Assembly (NCBI GenBank): GCA_964016885.1
Contig: OZ024751.1
Span: forward strand, 39,308,001 to 39,372,000
Direction of reading: 5' to 3'
DNA from: Eledone cirrhosa
Lineage: Eukaryota
Length of the DNA stretch: 64,000 nt
Every line of letters begins with the position of its first letter. Position 1 is the stretch's first letter. The notes below the pieces were generated by a model, which had not been told where the DNA came from, did not search any database, and saw only the letters and a program-made list of their open reading frames with translations. The translations under genes were made by a program, and so were the position numbers. Shown here in pieces: positions 48,809-55,489 of the stretch.

Positions 48809-49213
48809 CAAAATTTGTTTTATAAATACTGACATATCCCAGAAACCAGACCTTATCGGTTCAGGCTCTTTGCTTATATATATATATATATATATATATA
48901 TATATATATATATATATATATATATATATATATATATATATATATATATATATATATATATATATATATATATATATACATAACATATATATATACATAT
49001 ATATACATATATATATATATATATATATATATATATATATATATATATATATATATATATATATATATATACATATATATATATATATATGAATATAGAC
49101 ATAGAATATTCGAAAATATTCTGTATGTTTATAATAAACATTTTGAAGACCTAATCGCTATAGAATAGAATACGTCACGTATTACAATTAGATTCTCGAT
49201 AAAAGCAAGGGAA

Positions 49214-49256
49214 GTAATCTACGCGTTTCATTCTTGTTAGAAATCATCAGGACTAC
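49214..49256 (-). ncRNA. Type I hammerhead ribozyme, first of 9 minus-strand copies (every 310 bp, last at 51694-51736)
   Basis: Exact reverse complement of the 51908-51950 motif. Confidence 0.88.
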
Positions 49257-51907
49257 ATATCCAGTGCTTTTATCGAGAATGACACAGCTAGAGACTTATA
49301 GAATACTTAGCTGTGTACAGGAACTGGTTTGAAAGAGCGGTTGCCGGTCCGGCAGAAATTAGAAATTGGAATAAATGCTCTGAAATAGCGATATATATGT
49401 GAATATAGACATAGAATATTCGAAAATATTCTGTATGTTTATAATAAACATTTTGAAGACCTAATCGCTATAGAATAGAATACGTCACGTATTACAATTA
49501 GATTCTCGATAAAAGCAAGGGAAGTAATCTACGCGTTTCATTCTTGTTAGAAATCATCAGGACTACATATCCAGTGCTTTTATCGAGAATGACACAGCTA
49601 GAGACTTATAGAATACTTAGCTGTGTACAGGAACTGGTTTGAAAGAGCGGTTGCCGGTCCGGCAGAAATTAGAAATTGGAATAAATGCTCTGAAATAGCG
49701 ATATATATGTGAATATAGACATAGAATATTCGAAAATATTCTGTATGTTTATAATAAACATTTTGAAGACCTAATCGCTATAGAATAGAATACGTCACGT
49801 ATTACAATTAGATTCTCGATAAAAGCAAGGGAAGTAATCTACGCGTTTCATTCTTGTTAGAAATCATCAGGACTACATATCCAGTGCTTTTATCGAGAAT
49901 GACACAGCTAGAGACTTATAGAATACTTAGCTGTGTACAGGAACTGGTTTGAAAGAGCGGTTGCCGGTCCGGCAGAAATTAGAAATTGGAATAAATGCTC
50001 TGAAATAGCGATATATATGTGAATATAGACATAGAATATTCGAAAATATTCTGTATGTTTATAATAAACATTTTGAAGACCTAATCGCTATAGAATAGAA
50101 TACGTCACGTATTACAATTAGATTCTCGATAAAAGCAAGGGAAGTAATCTACGCGTTTCATTCTTGTTAGAAATCATCAGGACTACATATCCAGTGCTTT
50201 TATCGAGAATGACACAGCTAGAGACTTATAGAATACTTAGCTGTGTACAGGAACTGGTTTGAAAGAGCGGTTGCCGGTCCGGCAGAAATTAGAAATTGGA
50301 ATAAATGCTCTGAAATAGCGATATATATGTGAATATAGACATAGAATATTCGAAAATATTCTGTATGTTTATAATAAACATTTTGAAGACCTAATCGCTA
50401 TAGAATAGAATACGTCACGTATTACAATTAGATTCTCGATAAAAGCAAGGGAAGTAATCTACGCGTTTCATTCTTGTTAGAAATCATCAGGACTACATAT
50501 CCAGTGCTTTTATCGAGAATGACACAGCTAGAGACTTATAGAATACTTAGCTGTGTACAGGAACTGGTTTGAAAGAGCGGTTGCCGGTCCGGCAGAAATT
50601 AGAAATTGGAATAAATGCTCTGAAATAGCGATATATATGTGAATATAGACATAGAATATTCGAAAATATTCTGTATGTTTATAATAAACATTTTGAAGAC
50701 CTAATCGCTATAGAATAGAATACGTCACGTATTACAATTAGATTCTCGATAAAAGCAAGGGAAGTAATCTACGCGTTTCATTCTTGTTAGAAATCATCAG
50801 GACTACATATCCAGTGCTTTTAACGAGAATGACACAGCTAGAGACTTATAGAATACTTAGCTGTGTACAGGAACTGGTTTGAAAGAGCGGTTGCCGGTCC
50901 GGCAGAAATTAGAAATTGGAATAAATGCTCTGAAATAGCGATATATATGTGAATATAGACATAGAATATTCGAAAATATTCTGTATGTTTATAATAAACA
51001 TTTTGAAGACCTAATCGCTATAGAATAGAATACGTCACGTATTACAATTAGATTCTCGATAAAAGCAAGGGAAGTAATCTACGCGTTTCATTCTTGTTAG
51101 AAATCATCAGGACTACATATCCAGTGCTTTTATCGAGAATGACACAGCTAGAGACTTATAGAATACTTAGCTGTGTACAGGAACTGGTTTGAAAGAGCGG
51201 TTGCCGGTCCGGCAGAAATTAGAAATTGGAATAAATGCTCTGAAATAGCGATATATATGTGAATATAGACATAGAATATTCGAAAATATTCTGTATGTTT
51301 ATAATAAACATTTTGAAGACCTAATCGCTATAGAATAGAATACGTCACGTATTACAATTAGATTCTCGATAAAAGCAAGGGAAGTAATCTACGCGTTTCA
51401 TTCTTGTTAGAAATCATCAGGACTACATATCCAGTGCTTTTATCGAGAATGACACAGCTAGAGACTTATAGAATACTTAGCTGTGTACAGGAACTGGTTT
51501 GAAAGAGCGGTTGCCGGTCCGGCAGAAATTAGAAATTGGAATAAATGCTCTGAAATAGCGATATATATGTGAATATAGACATAGAATATTCGAAAATATT
51601 CTGTATGTTTATAATAAACATTTTGAAGACCTAATCGCTATAGAATAGAATACGTCACGTATTACAATTAGATTCTCGATAAAAGCAAGGGAAGTAATCT
51701 ACGCGTTTCATTCTTGTTAGAAATCATCAGGACTACATATCCAGTGCTTTTATCGAGAATGACACATATATATCGCTATTTCAGAGCATTTATTCCAATT
51801 TCTAATTTCTGCCGGACCGGCAACCGCTCTTTCAAACCAGTTCCTGTACACAGCTAAGTATTCTATAAGTCTCTAGCTGTGTCATTCTCGATAAAAGCAC
51901 TGGATAT

Positions 51908-51950: not shown

Positions 51951-54900
51951 TTCCCTTGCTTTTATCGAGAATCTAATTGTAATACGTGACGTATTCTATT
52001 CTATAGCGATTAGGTCTTCAAAATGTTTATTATAAACATACAGAATATTTTCGAATATTCTATGTCTATATTCACATATATATCGCTATTTCAGAGCATT
52101 TATTCCAATTTCTAATTTCTGCCGGACCGGCAACCGCTCTTTCAAACCAGTTCCTGTACACAGCTAAGTATTCTATAAGTCTCTAGCTGTGTCATTCTCG
52201 ATAAAAGCACTGGATATGTAGTCCTGATGATTTCTAACAAGAATGAAACGCGTAGATTACTTCCCTTGCTTTTATCGAGAATCTAATTGTAATACGTGAC
52301 GTATTCTATTCTATAGCGATTAGGTCTTCAAAATGTTTATTATAAACATACAGAATATTTTCGAATATTCTATGTCTATATTCACATATATATCGCTATT
52401 TCAGAGCATTTATTCCAATTTCTAATTTCTGCCGGACCGGCAACCGCTCTTTCAAACCAGTTCCTGTACACAGCTAAGTATTCTATAAGTCTCTAGCTGT
52501 GTCATTCTCGATAAAAGCACTGGATATGTAGTCCTGATGATTTCTAACAAGAATGAAACGCGTAGATTACTTCCCTTGCTTTTATCGAGAATCTAATTGT
52601 AATACGTGACGTATTCTATTCTATAGCGATTAGGTCTTCAAAATGTTTATTATAAACATACAGAATATTTTCGAATATTCTATGTCTATATTCACATATA
52701 TATCGCTATTTCAGAGCATTTATTCCAATTTCTAATTTCTGCCGGACCGGCAACCGCTCTTTCAAACCAGTTCCTGTACACAGCTAAGTATTCTATAAGT
52801 CTCTAGCTGTGTCATTCTCGATAAAAGCACTGGATATGTAGTCCTGATGATTTCTAACAAGAATGAAACGCGTAGATTACTTCCCTTGCTTTTATCGAGA
52901 ATCTAATTGTAATACGTGACGTATTCTATTCTATAGCGATTAGGTCTTCAAAATGTTTATTATAAACATACAGAATATTTTCGAATATTCTATGTCTATA
53001 TTCACATATATATCGCTATTTCAGAGCATTTATTCCAATTTCTAATTTCTGCCGGACCGGCAACCGCTCTTTCAAACCAGTTCCTGTACACAGCTAAGTA
53101 TTCTATAAGTCTCTAGCTGTGTCATTCTCGATAAAAGCACTGGATATGTAGTCCTGATGATTTCTAACAAGAATGAAACGCGTAGATTACTTCCCTTGCT
53201 TTTATCGAGAATCTAATTGTAATACGTGACGTATTCTATTCTATAGCGATTAGGTCTTCAAAATGTTTATTATAAACATACAGAATATTTTCGAATATTC
53301 TATGTCTATATTCACATATATATCGCTATTTCAGAGCATTTATTCCAATTTCTAATTTCTGCCGGACCGGCAACCGCTCTTTCAAACCAGTTCCTGTACA
53401 CAGCTAAGTATTCTATAAGTCTCTAGCTGTGTCATTCTCGTTAAAAGCACTGGATATGTAGTCCTGATGATTTCTAACAAGAATGAAACGCGTAGATTAC
53501 TTCCCTTGCTTTTATCGAGAATCTAATTGTAATACGTGACGTATTCTATTCTATAGCGATTAGGTCTTCAAAATGTTTATTATAAACATACAGAATATTT
53601 TCGAATATTCTATGTCTATATTCACATATATATCGCTATTTCAGAGCATTTATTCCAATTTCTAATTTCTGCCGGACCGGCAACCGCTCTTTCAAACCAC
53701 TTCCTGTACACAGCTAAGTATTCTATAAGTCTCTAGCTGTGTCATTCTCGATAAAAGCACTGGATATGTAGTCCTGATGATTTCTAACAAGAATGAAACG
53801 CGTAGATTACTTCCCTTGCTTTTATCGAGAATCTAATTGTAATACGTGACGTATTCTATTCTATAGCGATTAGGTCTTCAAAATGTTTATTATAAACATA
53901 CAGAATATTTTCGAATATTCTATGTCTATATTCACATATATATCGCTATTTCAGAGCATTTATTCCAATTTCTAATTTCTGCCGGACCGGCAACCGCTCT
54001 TTCAAACCAGTTCCTGTACACAGCTAAGTATTCTATAAGTCTCTAGCTGTGTCATTCTCGATAAAAGCACTGGATATGTAGTCCTGATGATTTCTAACAA
54101 GAATGAAACGCGTAGATTACTTCCCTTGCTTTTATCGAGAATCTAATTGTAATACGTGACGTATTCTATTCTATAGCGATTAGGTCTTCAAAATGTTTAT
54201 TATAAACATACAGAATATTTTCGAATATTCTATGTCTATATTCACATATATATCGCTATTTCAGAGCATTTATTCCAATTTCTAATTTCTGCCGGACCGG
54301 CAACCGCTCTTTCAAACCAGTTCCTGTACACAGCTAAGTATTCTATAAGTCTCTAGCTGTGTCATTCTCGATAAAAGCACTGGATATGTAGTCCTGATGA
54401 TTTCTAACAAGAATGAAACGCGTAGATTACTTCCCTTGCTTTTATCGAGAATCTAATTGTAATACGTGACGTATTCTATTCTATAGCGATTAGGTCTTCA
54501 AAATGTTTATTATAAACATACAGAATATTTTCGAATATTCTATGTCTATATTCACATATATATCGCTATTTCAGAGCATTTATTCCAATTTCTAATTTCT
54601 GCCGGACCGGCAACCGCTCTTTCAAACCAGTTCCTGTACACAGCTAAGTATTCTATAAGTCTCTAGCTGTGTCATTCTCGATAAAAGCACTGGATATGTA
54701 GTCCTGATGATTTCTAACAAGAATGAAACGCGTAGATTACTTCCCTTGCTTTTATCGAGAATCTAATTGTAATACGTGACGTATTCTATTCTATAGCGAT
54801 TAGGTCTTCAAAATGTTTATTATAAACATACAGAATATTTTCGAATATTCTATGTCTATATTCACATATATATCGCTATTTCAGAGCATTTATTCCAATT

Positions 54901-55489
54901 TCTAATTTCTGCCGGACCGGCAACCGCTCTTTCAAACCAGTTCCTGTACACAGCTAAGTATTCTATAAGTCTCTAGCTGTGTCATTCTCGATAAAAGCAC
55001 TGGATATGTAGTCCTGATGATTTCTAACAAGAATGAAACGCGTAGATTACTTCCCTTGCTTTTATCGAGAATCTAATTGTAATACGTGACGTATTCTATT
55101 CTATAGCGATTAGGTCTTCAAAATGTTTATTATAAACATACAGAATATTTTCGAATATTCTATGTCTATATTCACATATATATCGCTATTTCAGAGCATT
55201 TATTCCAATTTATATATATATATATATATATATATATATATATATATATATATATATATATGTATATATATATATATATATATATATATATATATATATA
55301 TATATATATATATATATATATATATATATATATACATACATATATTTATATATACCATCATAAAGCTCTGAGTGTTGAATACATATCGTTAGTTGATATT
55401 TATTTTAAATGATATAAAATGATTGTTTTTACATATCGAGAGCTCATTGTTTCGTAATTACAATTCATACTCAGATGACATTATATATA

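Follow-up and report, generated by a model that had tools for sequence, protein, structure and literature searches.

A two-armed array of hammerhead repeats

Within the window, a 64,000-nucleotide stretch of contig OZ024751.1 of Eledone cirrhosa, positions 49090-55211 hold 20 near-identical units of 310 bp, each with a complete type I hammerhead ribozyme. An earlier note on this DNA had described a 310-bp array with 20 hammerheads, and we count 20 complete cores at 310-bp spacing. The repeat units therefore stand as described, but not the single tandem run, because there are two arms of opposite sense: the minus-strand arm has nine cores, from 51730 down to 49250, and the plus-strand arm has 11, running from 51914 to 55014. 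The arms, whose ends and junctions we read from the assembly, diverge from a 4-bp microhomology common to both, CACA (51763-51766), and are set in (TA)n target microsatellites on the left (48875-49089) and right (55212-55345), outside which the left and right flanking sequences differ. A flank duplication at this locus would be masked by the pure TA.

Unit positions are counted from G51945 of a reference monomer running from cleavage site to cleavage site (51945-52254, plus strand; GC 34%, longest stop-free frame 59 codons). In RNA sense, the tail-less arm (49090-51766, minus strand; 8.6 units, nine hammerheads) begins at unit position 244 and has its 3' end at 130, adjoining the unit's (AT)4 tract, where it runs into (TA)n. 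The tailed arm (51763-55211, plus strand; 11.1 units, 11 hammerheads) begins at position 129 and ends, also into (TA)n, at position 167. Its tail, absent from the other arm, measures 37 bp (55175-55211, plus strand; unit positions 131-167), a size that fits the tail of 30-40 bp found at one end only of Penelope-like elements (PLEs; PMC8557442). Both fixed 3' ends are covered by a module kept in sister retrozyme families (52003-52140, plus strand), which is likely to be the recognition and priming element of the enzyme. Compared with the reference monomer, the 18 full units carry three substitutions in total (50823, 53441 and 53700), and two of them mirror each other: A257T occupies unit 6 of each arm, counting inward from its outer end, at 50823 in the minus arm and at 53441 in the plus arm.

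The first hammerhead of the plus arm (51908-51950) has CTGATGA at 51914-51920, a U-U mismatch at 51921/51934, GAAA, a palindromic stem III and a predicted cut after A51944. All the core elements first reported for it could be found (stem I GTAGTC/GATTAC, CTGATGA, GAAA, stem III ACGCGT, and GTA with A51944), as could the 16-bp helix that extends stem I beyond an internal loop (51884-51899 pairing with 51957-51972, plus strand), which is a perfect complement, and the three further hairpins of the unit. The type I core (C3 U4 G5 A6 N7 G8 A9, G12 A13 A14, A15.1-U16.1, H17) is present in 20 of 20 units here and complete in 1,391 of 1,398 sampled units of the family.

Folding of the unit gave a structure that beats all 100 dinucleotide shuffles (z -4.7), with a well-predicted stem I of 6 bp and a stem II of 4 bp behind the U10.1-U11.1 mismatch, a natural variant that is tolerated (PMC3088659). 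Stem II is weak in the predicted monomer fold (pair probability about 0.15), and the 2-bp stem III, with a probability of 0 in the monomer, forms in the two-strand fold. Monomer and dimer folding, proposed in the earlier note, thus yields stem III between two strands but not within one. The Rfam search proposed with it gave no RF00163 among its four matches with E up to 10, and none at gathering score, the best being HH9 with 19.2 bits against 52 (E 0.061).

A dispersed family with a fixed architecture

Pattern matching of short exact sequences across the genome put the family at about 19,000 units, spread over roughly 1,200-1,700 insertions; a single 36-nt variant of the hammerhead recurs in 4,495 exact copies, and the end junctions have 715 and 219 exact matches. 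These thousands of exact copies in over a thousand insertions bear out the earlier reading of a young, dispersed retrozyme rather than an ordinary satellite. With its 310-bp tandem units (within the 150-450 range), type I hammerhead, GC below 50%, lack of coding capacity and dispersal, the family is a non-coding animal non-LTR retrozyme, with a build for which we found no published description. Newt satellite 2, schistosome SM-alpha and the cave-cricket repeats are likewise tandem hammerhead repeats with a palindromic stem III and, compared by description only, share this layout; to our knowledge, a two-armed build is not known for them.

In a sample of 145 insertions, this locus among them, 130 are two-armed. 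Where both outer ends are visible, 126 of 127 loci pair one tailed end (160-175) with one tail-less end (124-140), the two fixed 3' ends lying about 35-40 nt apart, and no like-with-like pair occurs among the 127. Both flanks open with at least eight alternating TA in 116 of the 127, and at least one flank does so in 125. Flank duplications of 11-40 bp are seen in 11 of 127 loci (shuffles: mean 2.3, maximum 5). It is hardly credible, given these regularities, that the inversion is a fold-back read or an assembly artefact: perfect palindromic repeats are indeed hard to assemble, and one sampled array ends in an assembly gap while another has a gap between its arms (L033, L193), but an artefact would explain neither the tail/no-tail rule and the excess of flank duplications, nor flanks that differ outside the TA tracts and arms that are unequal in length and end.

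The inner ends behave differently from the outer ones. Overlaps of at least 3 nt occur at 42% of 95 insert-free junctions (7% expected), and six inner ends fall at the cleavage site where 8.4 are expected, so there is no pile-up, which fits a seamless template. Template jumping between cut linear monomers is disfavoured by this lack of excess. Inner-end positions depart somewhat from uniformity in the larger sample (p 0.018; p 0.75 in a smaller one). These positions also bear on L1-type twin priming, by which a LINE enzyme acting on a multimer transcript would have made the inversion. The twin-priming model has the inner start of the direct arm abut the outer end of the inverted arm, and here the plus arm does begin, at 129, right beside position 130, where the inverted arm ends on its outer side. 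In the family, however, starts at 120-140 were counted for 13 of 128 tailed arms, with 8.7 expected (p 0.09), there is no poly(A) end, and a one-sided tail is described as PLE-specific (PMC11167929, PMC8557442). We therefore rejected twin priming, largely on the inner-end census, as very improbable.

Variation within the hammerhead is unevenly placed. Eight of nine distinct fixed variants lie at permissive places (N7, loop II, 10.1), against two of 15 single-unit variants (Fisher p 0.0005, with classes defined after the variants had been seen), and the 10.1-11.1 pair is restored in 23 of 145 loci. The 12 core positions carry none of 37 fixed substitutions, a weak test with about 1.4 expected. 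Judged from the sequences, variation that is passed on appears to keep the hammerhead fold, self-cleavage being only predicted. Among retrozyme dimers of Xenopus, eight of nine are reported without cleavage (bioRxiv 10.64898/2026.07.22.740005).

One haplotype per insertion, and a possible exception at this locus

At 128 of 130 loci the two arms of the insertion agree in their fixed variants; shuffling gives a mean of 22 and a maximum of 32. In one array A216G is present in each of the 18 units that cover the position, in another A164T likewise in all 20, and neither is fixed in any other array genome-wide; of the four variants tested as unique, G14T turned out to be a subfamily and T174A to be fixed at a second locus too. 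The full daughter haplotype is present in none of the five candidate donor arrays for A216G and none of the two for A164T. A donor can be proposed for the monomer combining G14A and C210A, which exists at two loci only in the genome: a mosaic array on C1, where it forms eight of 47 units, never adjacent, and an array on C3, where it forms every unit of both arms. The mosaic would be the donor and the C3 array its daughter via one unit, a direction that we only infer because C210A also exists without G14A as a subfamily (L048, L211). Since no C210A unit precedes a G14A unit in the mosaic, the junction of the excised unit would lie between positions 211 and 13, an interval that includes the cleavage site (chance of this, about 36%). 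The fixed variants shared by the arms and this donor-daughter pair together indicate that insertions pass through a single unit, which is what one would expect if a circle were copied by a rolling-circle mechanism.

In-place growth is a quite unlikely source of such uniformity. Units would have been inserted singly or as short pieces and then multiplied and homogenised through slippage, unequal exchange and inter-arm conversion, and such processes would account for the internal duplications of long arrays, with periods of 7, 8, 9 and 11 units (L036, L074, L109/L241), and for a higher-order satellite of a variant unit on C14 (L238, L248). The 140 single-unit variants in 441 kb (0.098 per unit), however, mostly stay single, so turnover would be too slow to homogenise both arms; moreover, inner junctions fall anywhere in the unit, yet both outer ends are fixed, and a uniform daughter on another chromosome would be left unexplained.

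The circular template first proposed fits this family-wide bottleneck but does not account for everything at the locus. A single circle read twice does not yield exact mirrored variants, and a 310-nt circle alone leaves the mirrored unit-6 substitution (50823, 53441) unexplained. Across the family, a non-fixed substitution is common to both arms in eight of 130 two-armed loci (0.05 expected), and exact mirrors, measured from the outer ends, occur at three: this locus, L082 and L091, the last with a three-site haplotype switch. The assembly holds no donor for the A257T of this locus; its sole further copy was rejected as donor, lying on a T284A background. Nor are all arms mirror copies, which is ruled out by 84 single-unit variants in the mirrored zone that are unshared between arms.

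These mirrors favour an alternative that keeps the same PLE enzyme and priming sites but derives both arms from one linear multi-unit RNA, or the second arm from the DNA of the first. Such an RNA might have been transcribed through a donor array and left uncut, or might be a multimer initially produced from one circle. The weak stems II and III predicted for the monomer and the finding that uncut RNA was the main substrate in vitro of the one PLE assayed (PMC11167929) also favour it. A mosaic donor, however, would then give a mosaic copy, whereas the C3 daughter is uniform and its unit is never doubled in C1; the 84 variants are unshared; and genome-unique variants fixed in 18-20 units require a one-unit step. 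As a general account we consider the linear template a possible but clearly less probable one, although a minority of insertions, possibly including this locus, likely arose from a multi-unit linear template or by later conversion.

A bolder proposal would make the 310-nt circle an animal viroid-like replicon that moves between hosts, with an RNA multimer made from one circle and written by a dimeric Penelope enzyme at the break ends. Such a multimer would explain both the one-unit bottleneck and the donor-less errors mirrored in both arms, and movement between hosts is suggested by near-identical units in public runs under 17 organism labels, which could also reflect contamination. We regard it as a long shot.

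A probable Penelope-like route of insertion

The pairing of a tailed with a tail-less end in 126 of 127 loci (tail of 37 bp here), together with the inverted copy and the TA microsatellite target, is a known PLE signature. Insertions of EN+ PLEs carry an inverted 5'-truncated copy at their 5' side (PMC8557442, PMC3846280), the origin of inverted, tailed insertions is called undefined in the PLE literature (PMC8557442), and an assay with a purified PLE showed cleavage and extension of both strands, the tail being defined by two neighbouring internal start sites (PMC11167929). Neither the two-armed build nor PLE-type two-ended priming formed part of the earlier note. The build implies two cDNAs primed from both break ends, which points to a PLE enzyme. 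Six features are observed: the two-armed build, fixed 3' ends, TA targeting, one haplotype per insertion, a donor-daughter pair linked via a single unit and hammerhead-preserving variation. The most probable explanation, in our judgement, is a young hammerhead retrozyme insertion by a PLE reverse transcriptase (RT)/endonuclease, primed from both cut ends and copying one monomer, a predicted circle.

Under this preferred reading, the transcript of an older array would self-cleave, probably as a dimeric hammerhead because stem III is palindromic and of 2 bp, and a host ligase would close the monomer into a circle. The PLE enzyme would bind the conserved module and nick both (TA)n strands; synthesis of one cDNA would begin at position 165-172, and that of the other at about 130, a point at which the (AT)4 tract of the unit can pair with the target. 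Both would roll for a median of 3.5-4.5 turns, and the two cDNA ends would be joined by microhomology.

Circle-templated tandem cDNA and PLE mobilisation have been proposed for retrozymes (PMC7229834; bioRxiv 10.64898/2026.07.22.740005), whose papers propose PLE copying of circular RNA into tandem DNA without showing it. Our results suggest this long-proposed route: Penelope-type copying, from both ends and round and round, of a single RNA unit, probably a circle. The family would provide over a thousand young, marker-bearing records of circle copying and inverted tailed insertion. With a 310-nt substrate and two exact start sites, the existing in vitro PLE assay could test rolling-circle copying and two-ended priming, and the donor-daughter pair and the mirrored variants make predictions that are testable and point in opposite directions. 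Kilobase palindromes, present by the thousand in microsatellites, may also have a bearing on genome stability and double-stranded RNA.

Animal non-LTR retrozymes, known from coral, mussel and axolotl (PMC7229834), resemble the family: their tandem units, of 150-450 bp, are non-coding and low in GC, each has a type I hammerhead whose short stem III suggests cleavage as a dimer, and they occur in thousands of dispersed copies alongside PLEs. As to the build, the main text of PMC7229834 does not use the word "inverted", and the parts consulted of bioRxiv 10.64898/2026.07.22.740005 mention neither two-armed arrays nor fixed ends, a tail or a one-unit bottleneck. The latter derives vertebrate retrozyme tandems from a pLTR amplified locally; for the 310-bp family we found no pLTR related in sequence. 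Plant LTR retrozymes (PMC4918200) are also non-autonomous and hammerhead-bearing and spread via circular RNA, but their hammerheads are of type III and they have LTRs and target duplications of 4 bp, features that the family lacks.

EN+ PLEs (Penelope/Poseidon, Neptune, Naiad) share with the family the inverted 5'-truncated copy at the 5' side and the one-ended tail (PMC8557442, PMC3846280, PMC11167929), as well as two RT start sites downstream of the hammerhead, AT-rich or (TA)n targets and microhomology junctions. They differ in that each arm of the family is a chain of several units that can reach 20 or more turns, its hammerhead has full stems where that of PLEs is a minimal form, and it has no RT or GIY-YIG reading frame; with no frame above 59 codons, the unit is not an autonomous PLE. 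In line with a PLE route, the genome is rich in GIY-YIG elements, with 10,596 candidates, of which 150 were scored. A search of 50 GIY-YIG regions among these candidates, and of the other DNA fetched, turned up no autonomous PLE with the module. As partners, L161 and L160 were rejected, their matches being TA-rich noise, and so were L122 and L165, where the GIY-YIG match lies next to a different non-coding repeat with a hammerhead. L151, which has RT and GIY-YIG matches, likewise runs into TA at two fixed ends, located 76 and about 141 nt past its own hammerhead, and a short end motif is the sole sequence that its family shares with the 310-bp family.

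Two-armed build of the array and of its genomic relatives

The earlier note had counted 20 hammerheads at this locus, and 20 complete type I cores were recovered in the window, of which the minus strand holds 9 and the plus strand 11, at a spacing of 310 bp, three substitutions in total being present among the 18 full units of the array. The helices that it named are present in the unit, whose fold beats 100/100 shuffled sequences, and the Rfam check that it proposed scored the hammerhead below threshold. A U-U mismatch opens stem II of this hammerhead, a tolerated variant according to the accessible text of PMC3088659, and is found again in other hammerhead repeats of the same genome. 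Two further hammerheads of the window belong to two other abundant repeat families: the one at 25433 (+), which also carries U10.1-U11.1 and is weakly similar downstream to the module described below, and the one at 17364 (-).

The repetition at 310 bp was borne out but the layout as a single tandem run was not, as the array, set between two TA tracts, has two arms (minus, 49090-51766; plus, 51763-55211) that overlap by 4 bp at 51763-51766 and run apart from there. Numbering the unit from G51945, the base following the predicted cut, the minus arm ends outward at position 130, adjoining the (AT)4 tract of the unit, and the plus arm at position 167, leaving a 37-bp tail on one side.

We parsed 145 insertions: the window itself, 10 taken from the hammerhead list, 77 from the list of tail-less ends and 57 from that of tailed ends; all except the window come from C1-C3. 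From the 100 listed tail-less ends, 15 came in through other lists and 7 were left out. The complex loci L196, L208 and L230 and the variant-picked L171-173 were set aside from the 145, a tandem duplicate was entered as one locus, and 20 further fetched stretches were kept out of the counts. Two arms were present in 130/145 insertions, invariably minus then plus. Where both outer ends are visible (127 loci), a tailed end (unit positions 160-175) is paired with a tail-less one (124-140) in 126, the remaining locus has an odd end, and no like-with-like pair occurs. Inner ends are spread over any unit position with microhomology above expectation, TA flanks nearly all insertions, and a flank duplication of 11-40 bp accompanies 11 of the 127. 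Unrelated pieces of 272 and 123 bp are captured between the arms in L037 (2599-2870) and L178, respectively. L230 (G000:C3, 7.835-7.845 Mb) holds a pair of insertions, separated by 8 kb, with an identical inner junction but exchanged outer ends, which may reflect an inversion by way of the arms.

The search for dispersed arrays proposed in the earlier note proved productive: one exact 36-nt hammerhead variant has 4,495 copies in the 3.0-Gb genome and matches ~297 of 1,269 sampled units, which gives ~19,000 units. Exact end junctions number 219 tailed and 715 tail-less genome-wide; in the first 346 Mb of C1 the lists give 22 tailed ends, of which 13 adjoin one of the 100 listed tail-less ends. 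Extrapolation from these lists gives roughly 1,200-1,700 insertions.

Haplotypes within and between insertions

Each insertion carries one haplotype: variants agree between arms in 128/130 loci, against 22 when shuffled. A fixed variant private to one locus of the sample was found in 18/145 loci, a rate similar to that of single variants, 0.098 per unit. Four such variants were checked genome-wide; A216G and A164T are each fixed in one array only (18 and 20 units, respectively), T174A is fixed in two, and G14T marks a subfamily. The ribozyme fold is spared by transmitted variants and not by single-unit variants, in classes defined after the data had been seen. A one-base insertion two bases past the cleavage site, which keeps stem I pairing, is fixed in 12/145 loci, including L041, L045, L071, L078, L085 and L087.

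Only two loci have a monomer in which G14A and C210A are combined. One is a mosaic array on C1 (L109, L241; G000:C1 217.79-217.81 Mb), whose 47-unit arm holds 8 such units, never adjacent, 23 plain units and 16 with G14A alone, and shows internal duplications, 9 and 11 units long; the other is a small array on C3 (L243), where all units of both arms carry the pair. A single C1 unit would thus have given a whole two-armed insertion on another chromosome, the mosaic being its probable donor. The direction, from C1 to C3, we infer because C210A is nested inside the G14A units; the existence of a C210A-only subfamily leaves room for a different history.

Against a single-unit template, 8/130 loci have a non-fixed substitution common to both arms, where 0.05 would be expected. 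Three of the 8 are exact mirrors from the outer ends, including the window (A257T at 50823 and 53441, with no donor in the assembly) and L091 (a three-site haplotype switch). Such loci call for a shared linear template, for one arm being copied from the other, or for conversion with the self-complementary TA flanks as anchors. Weighing fixed-unique variants against mirrored ones gives a rough, uncomputed estimate that between two thirds and nine tenths of the insertions passed through one unit. Later internal duplication is seen in long arrays. In L238 and L248 (G000:C14, ~25.21-25.27 Mb), a unit variant has become a long higher-order satellite on one strand, with interleaved TA spacers.

Known retrozymes and runs under other organism labels

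The array works like an animal non-LTR retrozyme and is one by testable features, in which the unit matches those described in the available portion of PMC7229834. What the accessible text of the review PMC7761336 raises for retrozymes is possible RNA-to-RNA replication, and a preprint (bioRxiv 10.64898/2026.07.22.740005, in its accessible part) argues for their mobilisation by Penelope-like elements (PLEs) from co-occurrence and pLTR likeness. The retrozyme kind is known; the two-armed, tail/no-tail build and the one-unit donor-daughter pair appear to be new, neither being found in the reachable literature, which covers subscription papers thinly.

Between 76 and 100% of the unit's words are present in 20 runs from 16 studies under 17 organism labels. 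Of 4 runs whose contigs were examined, one has 663 variant contigs, covered very deeply. Runs X1, X3 and X4, under three labels, each have one self-closing 340-base contig (the unit plus overlap), at a depth of 10-26; their haplotypes also occur in the Eledone cirrhosa genome. The plain reading is that the samples were contaminated or contained host material; transfer between hosts is possible.

Penelope-like elements and sister families

A PLE enzyme is the likely writer of such insertions. Endonuclease-bearing PLEs typically leave a 5'-truncated copy in inverted orientation and a tail of 30-40 bp at one end only (PMC8557442, PMC3846280, accessible text), and one PLE, studied in purified form, cleaves both strands and extends them from two nearby internal start sites, the gap becoming the tail (PMC11167929, accessible text). 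The genome holds thousands of GIY-YIG candidates. One of these, L151, combines RT and GIY-YIG matches with flanking repeats carrying a hammerhead-like motif, and its two fixed ends run into TA. Its Cys linker we take to be Neptune-type. Long open PLE frames lie at L151 2809-5622 (-) and L153 2275-5562 (+); L151 has direct repeats on both sides and was perhaps active recently. In the window, an inverted 3' end of this presumably Neptune-type family, with an 88% match to L151, lies at 48100-48432 within TA and bears a hammerhead-like motif and a tail of its own; other pieces of the family are at 4610-4830, 34217-34815 and 36034-36590.

No autonomous element bearing the module of the 310-bp unit was found in this genome's fetched DNA. 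This predicted priming module (positions ~59-196) is common to at least 4 sister retrozyme families, 65-80% alike (L106 4647-5354; L111 3995-4300; L122 2433-2864; L067 3304-3689; L062), which have the same inverted, TA-bounded build wherever visible. The cores of L106, with a 320-bp unit, and L111 are apparently U3-A8 variants.
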